Origin: an uncultured bacterium
GTDB taxonomy: Bacteria > Bdellovibrionota > JACOXK01 > 2-02-FULL-40-11
DNA length: 13,188 bases
Direction: 5' to 3'
Assembly: GCA_964392415.1 (NCBI GenBank)
Contig: CAYMPL010000054.1
Coordinates: 1 to 13,188, forward strand
Part shown: piece by piece, positions 1,066-11,975 of the stretch
Layout: every line of letters starts with the position of its first letter
How positions within the stretch are numbered: position 1 is the stretch's first letter
Notes under the pieces: model-generated
What the model saw: only the letters and a program-made list of their open reading frames with translations
Told to the model about the DNA's origin: nothing
Databases searched by the model: none
Made by a program: the position numbers and the translations under genes

Positions 1066-1454
1066 TTAAAAGTGTGCTTGATCTTCAACGCAAACTTAAA
1101 AAAAGTTCTAAAACTATTTTAGAGCCTCATGAAGAAATTGTTGTAAGCTCAAGTGCGAGTTTTGATGTGGGAGCTTCACTTCATCCCCATTGGAAATTTT
1201 GTAATGTTGTTCTAACCCCTCAAAGATTGGTGTGCTACCAGGTACATCGGATTTTAGCTTCAATTCCCATCGAAAATATTTTGTCTTTTGAAATTGAAAA
1301 AAGAGAATGGATTTTAGGTAAAAAAGTAAAGCAGCTTCGGATCACCTCAAGCGGAAATAAACTGATTTACCTGGCGGTTCGAGATCCTGAAAAATGGATA
1401 TCGTGCGTTGAATATTTAAAAAACAAAAGTGAGAAGATGGCATGTCAAAAATAG
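1062..1454 (+). CDS. Hypothetical protein, possible bacterial PH/GRAM-like fold, translationally coupled inside the gvp operon
   Basis: 130 aa. It overlaps the upstream gene by ATGA and the downstream hsp70 start by 13 nt. The pattern FCNVVLTPQRLVCYQ ... ASIPIENILSFEIEK ... KQLRITSSGNKLIYLAV ... EKWISCVEYL resembles the beta-strand/IPxxxI/C-terminal W-helix layout of bPH/GRAM domains. No motif of a named Gvp protein was recognised. Confidence 0.6.
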   Translation: MIKSVLDLQRKLKKSSKTILEPHEEIVVSSSASFDVGASLHPHWKFCNVVLTPQRLVCYQVHRILASIPIENILSFEIEKREWILGKKVKQLRITSSGNKLIYLAVRDPEKWISCVEYLKNKSEKMACQK

Positions 1455-3199
1455 TGGGCATTGATCTTGGAACTACGAATAGTCTTATTGCCATTGTCAA
1501 AAATGGAAAGCCTCTGGTGATTTCAGATATCGATGGGGCTCTCTTAATTCCTTCGGTTGTGGGATATTCCCCTTCTGATCGAATGCTGGTAGGGAAAGAG
1601 GCCAAGGATCAAAGAATTCTTTATCCCCAAAAAACCATTTATTCGATTAAAAGGAGAATGGGTGAAAAAGTGCGTATTTCACTGGGGAGCCATGAATTTA
1701 CTCCAGAAGAGATTTCTTCTTTTATCTTAAAAAAGCTAAAAGATAATGCCGAACGATTTTTATCTGAAAAAATAGAAAAAGCGGTTATTACCGTTCCTGC
1801 CTACTTTGATGACAGACAACGTCAAGCCACAAAAAAAGCAGGGGAGTTAGCTGGGCTTGAAGTCGTTCGAATTATTAACGAGCCTACGGCTTCTTCTTTG
1901 GCCTATGGGCTGGATCGCGACCCATCTCCTCATACCGTGATGGTTTGGGATTTAGGGGGCGGAACCTTTGATGTTTCCATTCTTGAAATTGGAAATGGGG
2001 TTTTTGAAGTGAAAGCTACTTCTGGTGACACCCATTTAGGAGGAGATGATTGGGACGAAAGATTATTTTCTTATTTGGAAGAAAAGATAGGTAAAGAATT
2101 TGGAAAGGATGTCCTTTCGAATCCCTCCCTTCGAGCAAGACTTTTGGTGAGTTGTGAAAAGACCAAATGTCTTCTTTCAAAAGAAGAAAAGGCAGTCATC
2201 AATCAACCGATTTCATGTGAAGGGGAAAAATATTTTAAAAATTTTAAATATGAAATCACAAGACAAGAATTTGAAGATCTAACAAAAGATCTTTTTGAAA
2301 GACTTCTTCTCCCGACGAAACGAGCGCTATCTGATGCCAAGCTTTTTCCAACAGATATTGATCGGATTATTATGGTGGGTGGATCTTCCCGAATGCCAAA
2401 AGTAAGAGAGCTTGCTCAAAAAGCGATGGGAAAAATTCCCTATACAGAAGTAAACCCCGATGAAGTTGTGGCCTTAGGGGCCGCCCTTCAGGCAGCTATT
2501 ATTTCTCAAGAAATGACAGGAATGGTACTTTTAGATGTGACTCCCCTTTCTTTGGGTATTGAAACTCAAGGAGGGATTTTTACAAAGGTGATTGATCGAA
2601 ATACGCCTATTCCCACCTCTCAAAGTAAGATTTTTACAACGGCCGAAGATAATCAAACGACTTTTGACATTCATATTCTTCAAGGGGAAAGAGAGATTGC
2701 CGTCTATAATCAATCTTTGGGAAAGTTTACTTTAGAAAATATGAGTCCAGCTCCAAAGGGAGAAGTCAAAACAGAGGTTGTTTTTACCATTGATATCAAT
2801 GGAATTCTTCATGTATCTGCTCAAGATCTTCAAACGGGGGAAGAAAGAAAACTCAGTTTAAAAACACTGAAAGATATTACAGAACAAGAAATAGAATTTA
2901 TTCTATCAGAAGCCAAACGCTATGTGTCTCAAGATCAAAAAGAAAAAAATTTAAAGGAACTTTGTATCAAGGCGGAAAGCCTTATTTATGCAACAGAAAA
3001 AATGATTGAAGATTTAAGGGGAAAGTTACCATCCAATTTTATTGAAGAGGCCAGAACACTTATTTCTTCTTTGAAACAAACGCTTCTCAATGCCTCAAAT
3101 GATAGAGAAATTGAACAAAAGGTTTTAGATTTAAGAGAAAAAGTAAATACGGCTTATGAAGGATATCGAAAACAAGAATTAAAATCTCATCATGCATAA
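1442..3199 (+). CDS. Hsp70-family chaperone, a short DnaK/HscC-like paralog, embedded in the gas-vesicle operon
   Basis: The N-terminus has IVGIDLGTTNSLIAIV (the phosphate-1 motif of DnaK IIGIDLGTTNSCVAV). DLGGGTFDVSIL, IIMVGGSSRMPKV and the linker-plus-SBD start VLLDVTPLSLGIETQGGIFT are all present. The protein is 585 aa, so the lid/C-terminal tail is shortened with no GGMP/EEVD-like tail. The start overlaps the upstream ORF. Confidence 0.9.
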   Translation: MSKIVGIDLGTTNSLIAIVKNGKPLVISDIDGALLIPSVVGYSPSDRMLVGKEAKDQRILYPQKTIYSIKRRMGEKVRISLGSHEFTPEEISSFILKKLKDNAERFLSEKIEKAVITVPAYFDDRQRQATKKAGELAGLEVVRIINEPTASSLAYGLDRDPSPHTVMVWDLGGGTFDVSILEIGNGVFEVKATSGDTHLGGDDWDERLFSYLEEKIGKEFGKDVLSNPSLRARLLVSCEKTKCLLSKEEKAVINQPISCEGEKYFKNFKYEITRQEFEDLTKDLFERLLLPTKRALSDAKLFPTDIDRIIMVGGSSRMPKVRELAQKAMGKIPYTEVNPDEVVALGAALQAAIISQEMTGMVLLDVTPLSLGIETQGGIFTKVIDRNTPIPTSQSKIFTTAEDNQTTFDIHILQGEREIAVYNQSLGKFTLENMSPAPKGEVKTEVVFTIDINGILHVSAQDLQTGEERKLSLKTLKDITEQEIEFILSEAKRYVSQDQKEKNLKELCIKAESLIYATEKMIEDLRGKLPSNFIEEARTLISSLKQTLLNASNDREIEQKVLDLREKVNTAYEGYRKQELKSHHA

Positions 3200-3217
3200 C
3201 ATATTGAAAATACTAGG

Positions 3218-3312
3218 TGCAATAGCCGCAGATTTTACCGCTTTTCGTTTGAGGAATTTTCTTTTGGTTTTGATTTATTATTGAAAACGTTAAATGTATT
3301 TTTTGAAGACGA
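3218..3312. repeat. Direct repeat copy A (~95 bp, imperfect). Its reverse complement encodes a decayed copy of the C-terminal tail and stop of the PGPGW gene.
   Basis: 3220-3290 aligns to 4745-4815 with about 5 mismatches in 71 nt, and the shared core gtattttttgaa follows. The reverse complement translates LSSSSKNTFNVFNNKSKPKENSSNEKR*, against GSLSKNTLRAFNNKLKPKENASNEKR* at the end of the 4760..5041 gene. Confidence 0.75.
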
Positions 3313-3349
3313 ACTGAGAACTGCACATTTTTAGATGAAATATTATTGC

Positions 3350-3377
3350 TTGACTCTTCATATTTATATATTATCAT
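3350..3377 (+). promoter_or_regulatory. Sigma70-like promoter for the ATPase gene; the transcript is probably leaderless
   Basis: TTGACT at 3350-3355, a 16-nt spacer, then TATCAT at 3372-3377. The ATG at 3386 lies ~8 nt downstream of the -10 and there is no Shine-Dalgarno sequence upstream, consistent with a leaderless mRNA. Confidence 0.45.
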
Positions 3378-3385
3378 AAATAGTA

Positions 3386-4702
3386 ATGAGGATTTTTATA
3401 AATCAAAAATTATCAAGTAATATTAATGAGTTATTAGAAGATCCATCCGTAGCTGAAGCCATTAAAATCTGGGGTAAAGATGATATAATAGCAAAATCCG
3501 CAATTGATTTAAGTATTTTTAGAACCCCTTTTGGATCCATTTCACTGCTATATGGCCCCAGGCAAATTGGAAAAACAGCAACCTTAAAACTCTTTCTGAC
3601 ACAGGTCCAGGATTCAGAAACGCTCATCTTTACGGACTGCTCTACCATTTTGGATAAAGCGGATCTTGCTCAACATCTTTCAGGACTGATTCAGGGACCT
3701 ACTACGATTGTCTTGGATGAAGTTCAGGAAGTCAACGATTGGCATTTAGCGCTGCGTTCGATGTTTTCGGAAGGAAAGTTAAAAAACTGTCGCATTTGGT
3801 GCACTGGAAGTGAGGCACGTTATCTACTTGAAAGTGGAGAAAGGCTCCCTGGACGAAAGGGAGAAGGAAAAACCATCTTTGCTCGTCCTTGGAGCTTTCG
3901 GGAGTATATGGATTTTTTTTACATCCATGAGACAGCTCCATTTCGATCTCTTTCCTTTAAGCACATCAATCAAAATTGGCTCAATGACCAGAAGATAGAT
4001 TGGTCTAAATATTGGTCTTCGTATCTTTTATCGGGTGGCATCCCTCATGCCGTTGCCTCTTGGATCAACCATGGTAAAATTCCGGATTCGATATGGCATG
4101 TTTATGCAGATTGGATTTTGGGGACATGGTCTCGTGTTCGTACACCCCAACGTTCATTGGCAGCTCTGGCTCGTAGAATTTGTGATACGCTCAATACACG
4201 TGTAAGCTATGAATCTCTAAAAAAGGGAACAGATATTCAAAGCGCCAATACGATTAAAACACTCATCGATTTTCAAGAAGATCATTTTTCGCTTCATTTG
4301 CTTGCTCGTTTTGATACACAAAAAGAGAAATATCTTCCGTCTAAATTAAAAAAAATATATCCCATTGATCCGTTTATTGCGCGTATTTGGACAGCGATTG
4401 GATGGAACATTAGAAGAATTTACGAAGAATCTGTTCCTGAATTAAAATTGGATGAATGTGCTTTTTTGACTCAAATGTTTCGAAAAGAAGATTCTTTGCC
4501 CATTAGCTATCTTTATAGTGATCGCAGTAAATCTGAAATTGATTTTTATTTTGAAGAATGTGGTTTTGAACTCAAATCAAATGGCAATCCAACTCAACAT
4601 CAAAAAGAACTTTTAAAAACATGTCCTCAATCCTTTATCATCAAAAAAGAAAAGCTTCCTCTCATGGCGTATCTAGTTGGAGAGGGAAGAACATCATATT
4701 GA
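3386..4702 (+). CDS. AAA+ ATPase of the AAA_14/DUF4143 (COG1373-like) family with a C-terminal PD-(D/E)xK-like region
   Basis: Walker A LLYGPRQIGKTATLK. Walker B TIVLDEVQEV. C-terminal SEIDFYFEECGFELK carries a D...ExK pattern typical of the restriction-endonuclease-like domain fused in this family. 438 aa. The gene is flanked by the ~95-bp direct repeats. Confidence 0.8.
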   Translation: MRIFINQKLSSNINELLEDPSVAEAIKIWGKDDIIAKSAIDLSIFRTPFGSISLLYGPRQIGKTATLKLFLTQVQDSETLIFTDCSTILDKADLAQHLSGLIQGPTTIVLDEVQEVNDWHLALRSMFSEGKLKNCRIWCTGSEARYLLESGERLPGRKGEGKTIFARPWSFREYMDFFYIHETAPFRSLSFKHINQNWLNDQKIDWSKYWSSYLLSGGIPHAVASWINHGKIPDSIWHVYADWILGTWSRVRTPQRSLAALARRICDTLNTRVSYESLKKGTDIQSANTIKTLIDFQEDHFSLHLLARFDTQKEKYLPSKLKKIYPIDPFIARIWTAIGWNIRRIYEESVPELKLDECAFLTQMFRKEDSLPISYLYSDRSKSEIDFYFEECGFELKSNGNPTQHQKELLKTCPQSFIIKKEKLPLMAYLVGEGRTSY

Positions 4703-4742
4703 GAGTTTAAGTTCAAAATATTGCGAAATTATTTATGCAGGT

Positions 4743-4838
4743 ATCAATAGCTGCAGATTTTACCGCTTTTCGTTTGAGGCATTTTCTTTTGGTTTTAATT
4801 TATTGTTGAAAGCGCGGAGCGTATTTTTTGAAAGTGAA
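4743..4838. repeat. Direct repeat copy B; the original copy, containing the stop codon and last ~26 codons of the convergent PGPGW gene
   Basis: See copy A. The stop TAA of the minus-strand gene (reverse complement of 4760-4762) lies inside the repeat, so the duplicated segment spans the coding/3'UTR boundary. Confidence 0.75.
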
Positions 4839-5041
4839 CCGGCTTTGTCTTTGAATTTTTTGAGGAGGATGCGTGCCCAGATAAATTCCGTTGCCAGAAG
4901 CACAAGCCCTATGAGCATGACCACTATGCCAGGACCTGGGGTAAAGAACATGACGGCGCCTATCAGAACAATCGTACTTCCAATAAGAAAGATGAATATG
5001 CGTTTGAGCGTTTTATAGGTCATTTTGGCGAGTTCGAACAT
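4760..5041 (-). CDS. Small membrane protein with a PGPGW-type motif. The ORF track extends to 5089 with a TTG; the probable start is the ATG at 5039-5041 (MFELAK...).
   Basis: Two predicted TM helices flank FFTPGPGIVVMLIGLVLL, the motif of the putative transmembrane PGPGW family. GGAAG lies ~8 nt upstream of the 5041 ATG. The gene converges on the ATPase gene. Confidence 0.6.
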   Translation of the reverse strand: MFELAKMTYKTLKRIFIFLIGSTIVLIGAVMFFTPGPGIVVMLIGLVLLATEFIWARILLKKFKDKAGSLSKNTLRAFNNKLKPKENASNEKR

Positions 5042-5165
5042 TTGGAATCTTCCCAGTGATTTTATAGACAAAGCGGCGTTATTTTTCAAGAATAAAATCG
5101 GAATGACACTTTAAAAATTTTAATCCATCTTTATCAAACCTTAACAGACAAACGCTATGTATGAC

Positions 5166-5186
5166 CCATTTCCTTCAAGGAAATGG
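5166..5186. promoter_or_regulatory. Perfect 8-bp inverted repeat (CCATTTCC ttcaa GGAAATGG) immediately upstream of the pstS ribosome-binding site
   Basis: Read directly from the sequence. It sits about 15 nt upstream of the AAGGAG Shine-Dalgarno sequence of pstS. It could be a regulator binding site or a 5'-UTR hairpin. Confidence 0.35.
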
Positions 5187-5215
5187 AATTGCGCATTATG
5201 AAAAGGAGACAAACA

Positions 5216-6202
5216 ATGAAAAAGCGAATGGCGCTCATTGCTGGAATATTTACGGTTATCTTAAAAACAAGCTTTGCGCCGCATGCGGCGGCAGATCCGA
5301 CGATTGTCAAAGTGGATGGATCAAGCACGGTATATCCGATCACTGAGGCAGTTGCAGAGGAATTTCAGAAACAAAAAAAGGGGGTTCAGGTGACGGTTGG
5401 AATTTCCGGAACGGGAGGAGGATTTAAAAAGTTTTGCAGGGGGGAAACCGATGTTCAGGATGCTTCCCGCCCTATTCTTGAAGCGGAAATGAAGGTTTGC
5501 AAAGAGAACAACATCAAGTATGTTGAACTCCCGATTGCCTACGATGCTATTACAGTAGTGGTAAGTTCAAAAAATACGTGGGTTAAAAATATAACTGTTT
5601 CAGATCTTAAAAAGATCTGGGAGCCGGATGCCCAGGGAAAAATTCTAAAATGGAATCAGGTGCGGCCCGAATGGCCAAATTCCCAGATTAAATTGTTTGG
5701 CGCCGGTTCTGATTCCGGGACGTTTGATTACTTCACCGAAGCGATCGTTGGAAAATCAAAATCGAGTCGGGGGGATTACACGAGCAGTGAAGATGATAAT
5801 ACCCTTGTTACAGGTGTGAGCACCGATAAACATGCGTTAGGATATATCCCGTTTTCCTATTATGCCGCGAATACGAAACGCCTAAAGGCATTGAGTGTGG
5901 AGGGAATATTCCCCTCAGCAGCCACCATTGACGCAGGCGCTTATACGCCGCTTTCCCGGCCTATCTTTATTTATGTGAATTTGAAGGCGGTTGAAAGGGC
6001 CGAAGTAAAAGAGTTCTCAGAGTTTTATTTAAAGCAAGCCGCTCTTTTGGCGAAGCAGGTCAAATATGTCCCGCTGCCAGCCCCTCTATATGCGCAGGCG
6101 CTCAAAAATTTTCAAAAGAGAAAATTGGGAACTGCCTTTGGGGGGAAGCCTGAAGTGGGAATAAAAGTTGGGGAGCTCCTAAAGCGTGGGTCCAAATACT
6201 GA
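5216..6202 (+). CDS. pstS: Phosphate ABC transporter substrate-binding protein PstS. The ORF track starts at 5183, but AAGGAG at 5203-5208 supports the ATG at 5216.
   Basis: The signal peptide is MKKRMALIAGIFTVILKTSFAPHAAADP. Motifs of the PBP-like_2 PstS family are present (SSTVYPITEA, GISGTGGGFKKF). The gene is first in a pstSCAB-phoU operon. Confidence 0.85.
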   Translation: MKKRMALIAGIFTVILKTSFAPHAAADPTIVKVDGSSTVYPITEAVAEEFQKQKKGVQVTVGISGTGGGFKKFCRGETDVQDASRPILEAEMKVCKENNIKYVELPIAYDAITVVVSSKNTWVKNITVSDLKKIWEPDAQGKILKWNQVRPEWPNSQIKLFGAGSDSGTFDYFTEAIVGKSKSSRGDYTSSEDDNTLVTGVSTDKHALGYIPFSYYAANTKRLKALSVEGIFPSAATIDAGAYTPLSRPIFIYVNLKAVERAEVKEFSEFYLKQAALLAKQVKYVPLPAPLYAQALKNFQKRKLGTAFGGKPEVGIKVGELLKRGSKY

Positions 6203-7133: not shown

Positions 7134-8023
7134 TGACTCGCTCAAAGAGATATGATCTTCTTTTTTCATTCTTTAGTCTCTCAGCGCTCTGTTTGGCGCT
7201 CGCAACCCTTCTTGCATTGATGATGGCTCTCATGATCGAAGGGCTTCCGCGCATGAGCGGCTCTTTTTTGACCTCTTTCCCCTCGCGTTTTGCCGATCAG
7301 GCAGGAATTCTTTCAGCATGGGTGGGGACGCTGTCGGTTATGACGGTGACCGCCCTGACCGCTATTCCTCTGGGTGTCGCCGCTGGTCTTTATCTTGAAG
7401 AGTATGCGCCAAAAAATTTTTTAACCGCTTTTATTGAAATGAATATTTCGAATCTTGCGGGGGTTCCATCGATCGTCTATGGCTTGATGGCTCTGGGCAT
7501 ATTTGTTTACAAATTTCAGTTTGGTCAGAGCATTTTAACGGCAGGTCTCACATTGGCGCTTCTCATTCTTCCGATTATTATTGTAACGACACGGGAAACG
7601 ATTCGGGCTATCCCGCTGATGATCCGGGAGGGGGCCTATGCGCTGGGCGCCACGCGCTGGCAGATGGTCAAAGATCACATTCTCCCTTATTCGACGGGAG
7701 GAATCTTGACAGGGGTTATTATCGCGCTCTCTCGCGCGATCGCTGAGACGGCACCGCTCATTACCATTGGGGCTTTGACTTTTATAGCATTTTTGCCGCA
7801 CTCCCCATTTCAAAGCGGTTTTCCTTTTATTTCGTTTGAGTGGCTGAAAGATCCCTTTACCGTTCTTCCGATTCAGATGTTTAACTGGATCTCCCGTCCT
7901 CAAGAAGAGTTCCATCAGAATGCGGCTGCGGCTGGGATTGTTCTTGTTGCCCTTACTTTGATGATGAACGGTTTGGCTATTTATGTGAGATATCGATTCC
8001 GGAAAAGGATCAAATGGGCATGA
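7133..8023 (+). CDS. pstA: Phosphate ABC transporter permease PstA
   Basis: The GTG start at 7133 overlaps the pstC stop TAG at 7131-7133, with GAGG 7 nt upstream. It is a multi-TM permease with the loop [16 protein letters not shown], and is the second permease gene of the operon. Confidence 0.85.
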
Positions 8024-8781
8024 ACGAGAAAGCAGAGGTCAAAAATTTAAGCTTTTTTTATGGGGATGTAAAAGCGTTGGATTCTATTTCTGTTCCTATC
8101 TACAAAAATAGAATCACAGCGATGATCGGGCCTTCCGGATGCGGAAAGACGACCCTGCTTCGCTGCTTCAACCGCCTGCACGATCTTTATCCAGGCAATC
8201 GTTATGAAGGGGAGATTGTTTTATTCCCGGAGAATATCGATATTTTAAAAAAAGAAGTCGATCTGGTGGGACTTCGAATGCGAATCAGCATGGTTTTTCA
8301 AAAGCCAAATCCGTTCCCAAAATCAATTTATGAAAATGTCGCCTATGGCTTGCGTGTCAGAGGGATGAAGAATTCTTATTTCATCGGTGAAAAAGTTGAA
8401 GAGTCTTTGAAAAACGCGGCTCTCTGGGAGGAAGTTAAAGATCGCCTCTATGACCAGGCTTATCAGCTTTCAGGAGGGCAGCAGCAGCGGCTCTGTATCG
8501 CTCGCGCGCTGGCAACCGATCCGGAAATTGTTCTTTTTGATGAACCGACATCCGCGCTGGATCCCATTGCCACTCAAAAGATTGAGGAGCTGATTCATAG
8601 CCTGAAAGAACACTATACGGTGATTATTGTGACGCACAATATGCAGCAGGCTGCCCGGGTTTCTGATTTTACCGCTTTTTTTTATTTGGGCGAATTGATA
8701 GAGTTTGAGAAGACGGCAATTTTATTTACCAATCCAAAAGTAAAGAAAACAGAAGAGTATATTACAGGAAGGTTTGGATAA
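8014..8781 (+). CDS. pstB: Phosphate import ATP-binding protein PstB
   Basis: Walker [13 protein letters not shown] signature LSGGQQQRL. Walker [14 protein letters not shown]-loop VTHNM. The start overlaps the pstA end. Confidence 0.95.
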
Positions 8782-9468
8782 ATGACGCTTGCGCAGAAAT
8801 CGTTTGAAAGAGATCTTCAGGAAATCCAGGAAGAGCTTATTATGATGGGGGGAATGGTTGAAAAGGCGATTTCAACCTCTATTCTTGCTCTAAAGGATTT
8901 AAATGCGCGCCTCGCAAAAGAGGTGATTCGCTATGACAAAACGATTGATGAGCAGGAGCTAAAGATTGAAGACCTCTGTATCAAATACATTGCGCTGCAG
9001 CAGCCGAAAGCGACAGATCTCCGTTTTATTACCTCCGCCATGAAAATCAATAATGAACTCGAAAGAATGGGGGATTACGCGGAGAGCATTGCGCGGCAAG
9101 CTCTTTTTCTTTCTTCGAAACCGCCGTTAAAACCCTTGGTGAACATTCCACTGATGTCTGAACGCGTTCAGGCAATGGTGAAAGATTGTCTGACTGCCTT
9201 TTTAAAGAAGGATCAAGCTTTGGCGCACGATGTGATTCATCGGGATCATGCTGTCGATGAATTGCAAACGAGGATTTATAAGAACCTTCTTGGCGATATG
9301 ATTCGCGATCCAAATGCGATTGAAAGGGCGAGTTCATTGCTATTGGTTTCAACGCGGCTTGAGAGAATTGCCGATCAGGCGACCAATGTCTGCGAAGATG
9401 TCATTTATCTCGTCACCGGTGTGACCGTAAGACACAGAGACAAATTGAAGTTGGACGAGTCATCTTAA
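8782..9468 (+). CDS. phoU: Phosphate signalling complex protein PhoU
   Basis: 228 aa, two-repeat helical PhoU architecture (E(x)LxxMG..V.. / ..RIADxATNV). The ATG sits immediately after the pstB stop with a GGAAGG Shine-Dalgarno sequence. It is the canonical last gene of the pst operon. Confidence 0.9.
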   Translation: MTLAQKSFERDLQEIQEELIMMGGMVEKAISTSILALKDLNARLAKEVIRYDKTIDEQELKIEDLCIKYIALQQPKATDLRFITSAMKINNELERMGDYAESIARQALFLSSKPPLKPLVNIPLMSERVQAMVKDCLTAFLKKDQALAHDVIHRDHAVDELQTRIYKNLLGDMIRDPNAIERASSLLLVSTRLERIADQATNVCEDVIYLVTGVTVRHRDKLKLDESS

Positions 9469-11906: not shown

Positions 11907-11937
11907 AGACGACAAGTTATATGAGGATAGTTAAAAT

Positions 11938-11959
11938 TGTGTCAAGATAGTGTGAAAAC
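11938..11959. promoter_or_regulatory. Pho-box-like direct repeat (TGTGTCAAGATAGTGTGAAAAC; two TGTCA/TGTGA half-sites at an 11-bp period) in the phoB/ORF-12059 divergent region
   Basis: The enterobacterial Pho-box consensus is CTGTCATA(A/T)A(T/A)CTGTCA(C/T). This repeat has the same 7+4 periodicity. Read on the minus strand it gives TTGACAC, a -35-like hexamer for phoB. Confidence 0.35.
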
Positions 11960-11975
11960 TTGCGCAGTCCAGATA

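Follow-up and report, generated by a model that had tools for sequence, protein, structure and literature searches.

How a gene comes to stand alone between two copies of the end of its neighbour is the question raised by the stretch of DNA analysed here (13,188 nucleotides in all, hereafter the window), which comes from an uncultured bacterium of the Bdellovibrionota. In it, an hsp70 gene (1442..3199, plus strand; Pfam HSP70, E = 3.5e-194), the last gene of a gas-vesicle cluster, and an intact gene for a PGPGW membrane protein (4760..5089, minus strand; Pfam PGPGW, E = 6e-15) flank a gene for an AAA_14/DUF4143 ATPase, which sits between gas-vesicle and phosphate-uptake genes and not in a recognisable defence island. 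We conclude that the ATPase gene probably arrived by insertion; and we think it reasonably likely that a unit of promoter plus ATPase gene entered the end of the PGPGW gene, with duplication of some 95 bp of the target.

The flanking repeats and their source

The two direct repeats, A (3220-3314) and B (4745-4839), are 95 nt long and align without gaps at 82 of 95 positions (86%), with a spacing of 1525; both lie within 2 nt of where the first-pass annotation had placed its ~95-bp repeats, and its description of ~90% identity over the first ~70 nt followed by decay agrees with the 65/70 (93%) that we find there and the lower identity beyond. Repeat B (minus strand) forms the functional 3′ end of PGPGW: it takes in the stop codon (4760-4762), the 25.7 codons before it and the next 15 nt, where the stop and last ~26 codons had been claimed. 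Repeat A, on the same strand, is an orphan, decaying copy of the last ~26 PGPGW codons, the stop (3235-3237) and 15 nt beyond, whose translation ends in SSSKNTFNVFNNKSKPKENSSNEKR before the stop; stop codons lie directly upstream of it and, as had also been proposed, there is no gene body. The outer ends of A (3220) and B (4745) match exactly, both being 15 nt past a stop codon. For annotation, a footprint of this kind accounts for stray ends of genes like repeat A, and for the spurious 54-aa ORF called over it.

That the similarity arose by chance or by misassembly, or that it marks a member of a dispersed intergenic repeat, is effectively refuted, and we give such readings a negligible probability. 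A gapped local alignment of 3220-3307 with 4745-4832 scores 126, against at most ~30 for shuffled flanks (z ~45). Two further independent assemblies, at 99.98% identity, carry the identical repeat-ATPase-repeat arrangement, so that three assemblies agree, and the copies differ at 13 positions, which is not what a collapsed or duplicated read path would give; the layout is thus not an assembly artefact. The similarity follows the reading frame of PGPGW, and the sequence is orthologous to the PGPGW tails of two related loci (L003 and L004). A widespread repeat family unrelated to PGPGW had been named beforehand as a finding that would count against the proposal; in the sequences compared there are no dispersed copies, the 95-nt repeat occurring only twice in the 13-kb window and not at all in 153 other loci, the same strain aside. 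Within the window repeats no significant RNA structure was found (z ~0 to 0.9), and no terminator-like site was predicted.

The source of the repeat is the PGPGW gene end, as first proposed. Two PGPGW orthologues (P0002 and P0003) are 88-89% identical to the window protein, and in L003 and L004, whose DNA homology to the window spans 4767/4780-5097, the tail sequence is present once each with the PGPGW flank aligned; these relatives, ~90% identical, have no ATPase. In the conserved coding part, copy B matches L004 at 48/50 positions (and L003 at 46/50) and copy A at 37/50, and all ten differences there (positions 5-35) are A-specific, eight of them GC to AT; B is therefore ancestral and A derived. 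In the strain-specific tail plus the 15 nt after the stop, A and B agree at 43/45 positions while both match L004 at only 24/45; the copy was therefore made within the window's own lineage. Copy A is the degenerating, non-functional one.

The differences between the copies are unevenly spread, with 10 falling in 35 nt and 3 in the other 60 nt (p = 0.0035). The divergence had been taken to date the event as not recent; as the decay is not uniform, it is a poor clock and does not carry that date. Non-uniform decay of A also counts against the insertion that we favour, since neutral decay after one old duplication would not be expected to produce it. The pattern counts in favour of homologous capture of the Campbell type, in which circular or linear DNA carrying the ATPase beside a fragment of PGPGW tail would recombine with the resident tail via host RecA; both repeats would then be hybrid copies, and the original illegitimate event would have taken place earlier, in another strain. 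The cassette-side part of A is ~71% identical to B and the outer 60 nt 95%, and such a mosaic is what a crossover inside the tail would leave if the incoming copy had diverged from the resident one. Against this, the ten A-specific changes are mostly GC to AT and so resemble ordinary decay; the assemblies show neither a circular form nor a second arrangement; and the model presupposes a donor with the ATPase already beside a PGPGW tail, so that the origin of the junction is only moved one step back. We regard capture of this kind as possible, if unlikely.

The ATPase gene and the unit that probably moved

The ATPase gene (3386..4702, plus strand) encodes 438 aa and is preceded by a promoter, TTGACT-16-TATCAT (3350..3377, plus strand), which ends 8 nt before the ATG and at 10/12 is the best promoter-like match in 3100-5250; the first-pass placement of an ATPase gene with its own promoter between the repeats is thereby upheld. 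The -35 and -10 boxes are kept across the ATPase subfamily, and a conserved palindrome overlies the -10 box and the start codon. When 24 homologues were aligned, conservation was limited to the stretch from the -35 box through the stop codon: the left junction spacer, from repeat A to the promoter (3315..3349, plus strand), is conserved in 0 homologues of the 24-homologue upstream alignment, and the right junction spacer, from the ATPase stop codon to repeat B (4703..4744, plus strand), in no homologue of the downstream alignment. The moving unit is accordingly promoter plus ORF. The DNA homology of two homologue loci (L009/L010) to the window runs from 3367 to 4691.

Within the protein, the AAA_14 domain (PF13173, E = 4.9e-20, residues 52-175) has an invariant Walker A motif (G57-T64) and an invariant D111/E112 motif, and its fold is confirmed. 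The DUF4143 domain (PF13635) scores 28.1 bits, exactly equal to its cut-off; the DUF4143 family is classed as PD-(D/E)XK (PMC3424549). Here the residues E384, D386 and K397 are invariant and E395 is nearly so, and these residues lie on predicted strands (383-389 and 392-395) of a putative nuclease fold. The protein matches seven PADLOC PDC-S01 profiles (best E = 2.9e-25, 87 bits), judged by profile score rather than by PADLOC's calling thresholds. Its subfamily, which is divergent and tightly conserved, has members in groundwater ‘Deltaproteobacteria’, UBA10199 and Bdellovibrio-like MAGs, and no solved structures related to the window protein by sequence were found. We infer for the gene a role as a defence or selfish nuclease.

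The insert itself, 1430 bp with a single ORF, has the AAA-type and DUF4143 domains as its only Pfam domains. No transposase, integrase or other recombinase domain was detected by Pfam between or beside the repeats, the neighbours being hsp70 and PGPGW; the insert holds no methyltransferase, no inverted repeats bracket the window's ATPase gene, and the base composition of the insert is not distinct from that of its flanks. A site-specific integrative element was considered, and is ruled against by the absence of a tyrosine or serine recombinase domain between or beside the repeats.

A probable insertion, and the history of the hsp70-PGPGW region

We propose that a 1.43-kb unit, the promoter and one ATPase gene, entered PGPGW some 26 codons short of its end, with ~95 bp of target being copied to both sides of the insert. 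Such a duplication could come from repair of a break whose ends were staggered by ~95 nt, or from an equivalent illegitimate joining. The right copy, B, would keep PGPGW intact and remain under selection; the left copy, A, being redundant, would decay. On this proposal hsp70 and PGPGW would have been adjacent before the event, and the hsp70 3′ flank (3200-3217) would form the left side of the insertion site. Two hsp70 loci (L006 and L007, 84-85% nt identity) align to the window up to 3217 only, after which their genes are unrelated to it; the end of this homology is 2 nt from the edge of repeat A.

The ancestral junction of convergent hsp70 and PGPGW genes that had been proposed is not confirmed by the relatives found. 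We looked for an empty hsp70-PGPGW junction among five PGPGW homologues and three hsp70 homologues (the window's own protein excluded), and none joins the two genes. The 3′ side of PGPGW is occupied in relatives by phoB, an AbiE pair, a queuosine gene or a tRNA synthetase, and the gene adjoins one of 358 aa; downstream of hsp70 there are three different genes, one per strain. On the minus strand, the genes run 358aa / pho-pst / PGPGW in the window, 358aa / PGPGW / pho-pst in L003 and 358aa / PGPGW / AbiE in L004. The region has thus been reshuffled in every strain found, which explains why no relative has the empty junction; and a history more complex than one insertion is possible. Nor does any relative found carry the ATPase beside PGPGW or hsp70; had they all carried it here with both repeats, the first-pass annotation would have counted this against an insertion.

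Such reshuffling gives some room to a different history, in which a duplication or rearrangement set a whole second PGPGW gene beside hsp70, whose body was later lost, by deletion or by being overwritten on the arrival of the ATPase, so that A remains as a relic. The neighbourhood has been rearranged between strains ~90% identical, and the permuted gene orders would follow from a passing stage with two copies of PGPGW. This history takes more steps than one insertion, however, and the outer ends of A and B coincide exactly, as they would for one duplicated block; independent deletions, moreover, would not give the same bracket at unrelated genes, which is what we see elsewhere in the ATPase family (below). 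We therefore consider it very unlikely.

Flanking repeats across the ATPase family and comparison with known systems

A scan of the genome collection with the single ATPase protein as query returned 0 loci and one with an alignment as query returned 70; a metagenome scan gave 70 more, and a viral scan gave no loci. Flanking direct repeats scoring at least 40 surround 19 of 112 family ATPase ORFs, versus 5 of 417 other ORFs (of at least 250 aa, from the same loci; Fisher p = 7e-10), and the 19 represent 13 clusters at ≥60% aa identity. Repeat lengths across the family range from 29 to 162 nt, and the targets differ between members: a 29-nt repeat is the last 9 codons plus stop of priA (L030), one of 162 nt is the 3′ part of a glycosyltransferase gene (L112), and one of 64 nt is the 5′ end of the downstream gene (L093). 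Such differences in target and length are a poor fit to a site-specific enzyme. That the footprint recurs at unrelated targets elsewhere in the family gives strong indirect support to the idea of a long target duplication, which had been raised for this locus from the start.

The footprint is not universal. Of 20 close homologues besides the window, 18 have no flanking repeat. On the side of insertion, 26 close homologue loci have almost no neighbours in common and none lies near PGPGW or hsp70; only two loci (L014 and L017) have three neighbouring genes in common, differently arranged. Hairpins or palindromes are present in several repeats of the family (L034, L057 and L075), and inverted matches are confined to direct repeats that are themselves palindromes; some repeats are both palindromic and conserved between species, and these may have a regulatory function and not be copies of a target. 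In Agrobacterium pAt plasmids two ATPase copies are old paralogues in different contexts, with no repeats, and an Acinetobacter copy is carried as cargo by a Tn3-family element. A search for a pair of occupied and empty sites among plasmid records yielded none. In the library searched, we found no report of mobility for the family in literature on DUF4143, COG1373 or AAA_14.

These family data bear on the rival explanation by capture in both directions. RecA can use homologies of the lengths seen here, all the family repeats (29-162 nt) being at or above its usable minimum, which counts in favour of capture; the targets differ among family members, so that a separate pre-existing donor would be required for each, which counts against it.

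Returning to insertion with target duplication, one may ask whether the gene moved itself. PDC-S01 genes might be autonomous single-gene mobile elements, whose ATPase-driven PD-(D/E)xK nuclease would make breaks staggered by tens to more than 100 bases at gene ends, promoters or hairpins; joining in of the promoter-plus-ORF unit would then produce target duplications as long and variable as those around the window gene and around at least a dozen independent members of the family. We think this distinctly unlikely as it stands. If true, it would represent a transposase-free mode of gene mobility, helping to explain the abundance of PDC-S01 among prokaryotic ‘defence candidates’. A few non-ATPase genes show the same repeat footprint, so that the mechanism may be the host's and not the gene's; this counts against the insertion that we favour for the window. 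[quoted passage not shown] The window protein is like PDC-S01 in being an AAA_14 ATPase fused to a DUF4143 PD-(D/E)xK domain, with both Pfam domains present.

Among known insertions, the locus resembles those of phages and islands at att sites in that the repeats are a gene's 3′ end and the target gene is left intact, and is unlike them in that the 1.43-kb insert has no integrase or other recombinase. Unlike an insertion sequence or transposon, it has no transposase and no terminal inverted repeats, and its duplication is 95 nt (29-162 nt in the family).

The closest match for the locus is the insertion with long target duplication of restriction-modification genes, reportedly described by Nobusato et al. 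in 2000. Restriction-modification and Type IV restriction genes are known with target-derived repeats of more than 30 bp and variable length, without a mobility gene; these repeats often overlap the 3′ ends of genes, and flanking repeats are significantly commoner for restriction-modification genes than for average genes (PMC2853133). As in the cases of Furuta et al. 2010, a short unit without transposase or integrase lies here between target-copied repeats of more than 30 bp (95 nt), the repeat length varies from case to case and the repeat overlaps the 3′ end of a neighbouring gene; the insert, at 1430 bp, is below the 20 kb that those authors set, with no mobility gene in or beside it, and the cargo is likewise a restriction-type nuclease, judged here by its PD-(D/E)xK motif. 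Unlike the restriction-modification cases, this cargo consists of one gene in which ATPase and nuclease are fused; it lacks a methyltransferase and does not count as a recognised restriction system. The published cases are also defined by an empty-site genome, whereas here the tail is single-copy in L003 and L004 and the hsp70 flank is never adjacent; and the repeats here are older, at 86% identity versus mostly >90% in the published restriction-modification tables.

PDC-S01 genes, here and in relatives, are thus often promoter-plus-ORF units between long target copies, a footprint that is the same as the unexplained one of restriction-modification genes. A very large uncharacterised family is hereby linked to a “selfish nuclease” mode of mobility, with the testable prediction that insertion requires both activities of the protein, nuclease and ATPase. 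The footprint itself is known from restriction-modification genes; what is new here is its presence, as long flanking repeats, around genes of the AAA_14/DUF4143 family.

The repeats and the gene they bracket

The window begins with the end of a gas-vesicle cluster, comprising gvpL/F (57-830), a gvpA-type gene (838-1065) and, as its last member, hsp70 (1442-3199); between the latter two lies a 130-aa ORF (1062-1454), without a Pfam match, which keeps the same position in an hsp70 relative (L006). The AAA_14/DUF4143 ATPase gene (3386-4702) lies 3′ of hsp70 and is followed by the convergent PGPGW membrane-protein gene (4760-5089, minus strand), a minus-strand pstSCAB-phoU block with phoR and phoB, and a 358-aa ORF beyond it. 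In the sister assembly L001, ~41 added bases within pstB (L001:7155-7197, against window 8440-8441) break the call into ORFs of 158 and 124 aa; the excess reflects strain variation or else an assembly error.

A repeat search of the window gave one strong repeat family, an ungapped 95-nt pair, 86% identical and 1525 nt apart, at 3220-3314 (copy A) and 4745-4839 (copy B). Their local alignment scores 126, where flank shuffles reach ~30 at most, and two further assemblies from the same groundwater well (Hainich H51) have the identical repeat-ATPase-repeat layout; chance or artefact is therefore excluded as the source of the repeat, and the finding of a repeat-bracketed ATPase is real. Copy B comprises the final 26 codons of PGPGW, its stop codon (4760-4762) and 15 nt past the stop. 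Read in the same frame, copy A gives SSSKNTFNVFNNKSKPKENSSNEKR* and copy B SLSKNTLRAFNNKLKPKENASNEKR*, and copy A has stop codons directly upstream and no gene body. The first-pass annotation had described these repeats and the gene between them correctly in every particular, and its placing of the PGPGW gene end in B, and of a diverged tail copy lacking a gene body in A, is borne out by alignment and reading frame. A 54-aa ORF (3213-3377, minus strand) also crosses copy A, in a frame other than that of the PGPGW tail; one public assembly (L002) calls it a gene; it has no Pfam match and is probably spurious.

We aligned both copies to the orthologous tails of two Logan contigs that are ~90% identical to the window (L003 and L004). 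Within the 50 nt of conserved coding sequence, B agrees with the orthologues at 48/50 and 46/50 positions and A at only 37/50. A and B differ ten times at positions 5-35; in every instance it is A that has changed, eight times from GC to AT. The ten final codons evolve fast; over these, the stop and the following 15 nt, copies A and B are alike at 43/45 positions, and both differ from L004 (24/45). Because the orthologues match B better, and A and B share this lineage-specific end, copy B is the PGPGW gene's own end, and copy A a redundant duplicate, made within the window's lineage and decaying since. The A-specific changes at 3281-3314 fall in an ancestral ACGCTCCGCGC stretch.

This decay is uneven: the 35 nt beside the cassette contain 10 differences and the outer 60 nt only 3 (Fisher p = 0.0035). 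It could reflect gene conversion between A and B across the outer part, junction synthesis that was prone to error, or crossing-over with an incoming copy that had diverged. Campbell-type integration, or homologous capture of a pre-formed unit, would account for such mosaic A/B divergence, and we consider it an unlikely origin of the locus.

The ATPase gene and the probable travelling unit

Between A and B there is a single ORF with, as the first-pass annotation had it, its own promoter, which is near-consensus (TTGACT-16-TATCAT, 3350-3377) and ends 8 nt from the ATG. The encoded protein combines an AAA_14 P-loop domain with a DUF4143 domain that scores exactly at the Pfam cut-off, and seven PADLOC profiles of the candidate defence family PDC-S01 match it. 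A recent survey (PMC12988326) ranks this single-gene ATPase-nuclease, still a candidate, fourth in abundance among the defence candidates of prokaryotes. In an alignment of 30 homologues E384, D386 and K397 are invariant and E395 nearly so, which on sequence grounds is the PD-(D/E)xK pattern; DUF4143 was placed in that superfamily by a systematic survey (PMC3424549). The AlphaFold model is confident (pLDDT 89.6) and places these acidic and lysine residues on predicted C-terminal strands. Neither a transposase or recombinase domain in the cassette (Pfam search) nor inverted repeats bracketing the ATPase gene (repeat search of the window) were found.

Groundwater and sediment MAGs contain many ATPase homologues of 55-82% identity; these MAGs carry the labels Deltaproteobacteria, UBA10199, Bdellovibrionales, Bacteriovoracaceae and even Nitrospira. 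A comparison of the 26 close homologue loci shows hardly any shared neighbour genes, and no PGPGW, hsp70, gvp or pst genes lie nearby. DNA homology to the closest of these loci is limited to 3367-4691 and, with 24 upstream and downstream regions aligned, conservation runs from the -35 box to the stop codon. Because conservation is confined to this span, the travelling unit appears to be the promoter plus the ORF, without conserved ends.

A conserved palindrome, with consensus ATTATCCTCA-N5/6-TGAGGATAAT, covers the -10 box and start codon of this ATPase subfamily (window 3365-3396 and 21 homologue loci). At least 8/10 positions are complementary in 12/22 loci, against 1.5% of shuffles; both arms are altered together in L013 and L025, and the palindrome is weak in the window itself (7/10). 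It is probably an operator. Family members are also present in 515 plasmid records, 168 of these from Acinetobacter; the copy at 55860-57092 of the Acinetobacter pittii plasmid NZ_AP021937.1 (L159) adjoins a Tn3-family transposase and resolvase, and also WYL/BrxA (BREX-type) genes, and given these neighbours is likely transposon cargo.

Relatives of the target side

L003 and L004, whose PGPGW orthologues are 88-89% identical, have a single copy of the tail and lack the ATPase. The hsp70 orthologue loci (L006, L007; 84-85% nt identity) align with the window to 3217, 2 nt short of copy A, and then run into two different, unrelated genes. Syntenic relatives, in which the first-pass annotation had proposed to seek an empty junction, include ATPase-free PGPGW loci, but hsp70 is joined to PGPGW in none of the PGPGW or hsp70 relatives looked up. 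On the minus strand the window order is 358-aa ORF, pho-pst, PGPGW, ATPase, tail, hsp70; that of L003 is 358-aa ORF, PGPGW, pho-pst, AbiE pair, and that of L004 is 358-aa ORF, PGPGW, AbiE pair. The whole neighbourhood has been reshuffled between strains and, since no relative joins both genes either, we infer rather than observe an ancestral hsp70/PGPGW junction. Such local reshuffling would also fit copy A being the relic of a second PGPGW copy, an origin that we regard as very unlikely.

The order of PGPGW and the 6.7-kb pst-pho block is exchanged, without inversion, between the ~90% identical strains of the window and L003 (window 4745-5118 and 11907-11969, compared with L003 and L004); in the third strain, L004, PGPGW has no adjoining pst-pho block. 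The phoB start is overlapped by the PGPGW tail in L003; the window has a separate TTGACA-type promoter region for phoB. The hsp70 3′ flank (window 3200-3217; L006:3166-3490, L007:1804-2353 and L008:11711-11925 in hsp70 relatives) is a synteny breakpoint in every relative, the next gene encoding a membrane protein, a different 173-aa-plus protein or a class II ribonucleotide reductase. In L003 (L003:614-688, two copies) and L004 (L004:535-594) a short repeat element of GTCATCCTGAGCC...GGATC type separates the 358-aa gene from the PGPGW promoter; only a GTGTCATTCCG remnant is left at the window's PGPGW/pstS junction (~5098-5112).

Flanking repeats across the family and probable insertion with long target duplication

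For every ORF of at least 250 aa in ~145 fetched loci (within L009-L151, duplicate and relative loci removed), 400 nt upstream were aligned against 400 nt downstream, and ORFs were sorted into ATPase and other by an iterated family HMM. Flanking direct repeats scoring at least 40 were found at 19/112 ATPase ORFs and 5/417 other ORFs (odds ratio 17, Fisher p = 7e-10), the positives forming 13 clusters at >=60% aa identity. Two more cases, L093 and L112, were left out of the count solely for their short flanks. Repeat lengths across the family are 29-162 nt, and 18/20 other close homologues have no flanking repeat.

Several of these repeats are, by their sequence, unmistakably pieces of a neighbouring gene. 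In L030 (MAG UBA10199-1, JASOAK010000001.1) a 68%-identical ATPase (8001-9323) lies within a 29-nt direct repeat (27/29; L030:7918-7946 and L030:9343-9371) that corresponds to the nine final codons and TAG stop of priA, the upstream gene. This second, independent case has the footprint at another target. The downstream gene's 5′ end (64 nt) is repeated upstream of the ATPase in L093. In L112 the ATPase lies between two copies (132/162) of a glycosyltransferase gene's 3′ part, and a second, unrelated family member (26% identical) lies just upstream of the first copy; the two ATPases thus stand in series (L112:2-3112), and a piece of this glycosyltransferase 3′ region (162-nt repeat) comes after each, which suggests repeated insertion into one gene. 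Perfect or near-perfect repeats in L034, L080 and L009 (45/45, 57/58 and 38/39) indicate recent events. The repeats in Sphingobacteriales (L038/L123/L128) and Cyclobacteriaceae (L042/L044/L046/L048) are palindromic and, since they are conserved between species, may be regulatory or binding sites and not plain target copies; these brackets are 40-100 nt long and contain palindromes such as TTTACTCAATATATTGAGTAAA (copies in L038 at L038:7895-7944 and L038:9078-9127).

The five non-ATPase positives represent four distinct loci and include a YhcG-type PD-(D/E)xK nuclease gene, two outer-membrane-protein genes and an uncharacterised 270-aa ORF. In L016 the YhcG/DUF1016 nuclease gene is bracketed by 88-nt repeats (79/88; L016:5617-5704 and L016:6913-6999), and in L011 one of the membrane-protein genes, a 422-aa porin-like gene, is bracketed by the duplicated 3′ end of the ATPase (38/40; L011:3256-3295 and L011:4770-4809). 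As genes other than the ATPase carry the same footprint, a host pathway may be enough to produce it, and self-mobility of the ATPase gene seems distinctly unlikely.

Because its anatomy matches a described process, we think the window locus is probably one more insertion with long target duplication, whose cargo is a PDC-S01-type gene. The first-pass reading, of an insertion at an hsp70/PGPGW junction, was broadly right, the junction itself being the part found in no relative. Duplication would imply that either side of the insert had ~95 nt of target at the time of joining; the simplest route would be a break with ends staggered by ~95 nt, filled in after joining. The staggered cutting could possibly be done by the encoded ATP-dependent nuclease, in the way that translocating restriction enzymes cleave at variable distances, and if so both the variable repeat lengths and the family enrichment would be accounted for.

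Insertion with long target duplication was defined by Kobayashi's group for Type I-IV restriction systems, its mechanism being left at a suspected role of double-strand breakage (PMC2853133). The kind of event is thus already known; the cargo family and its family-wide link to the footprint are new, as far as the searched literature shows, and merit a systematic survey. Unlike the published restriction-modification cases, the window cargo comes without a methyltransferase and so falls outside the literal definition, and unlike them the locus lacks empty-site proof, which makes it alike in working and not a certified member. It resembles them in that the unit is short and carries no mobility genes; the direct repeats are well over 30 bp, vary in length from case to case and are target copies overlapping gene ends; the cargo is a restriction-type nuclease; and flanking repeats are in significant excess over average genes.
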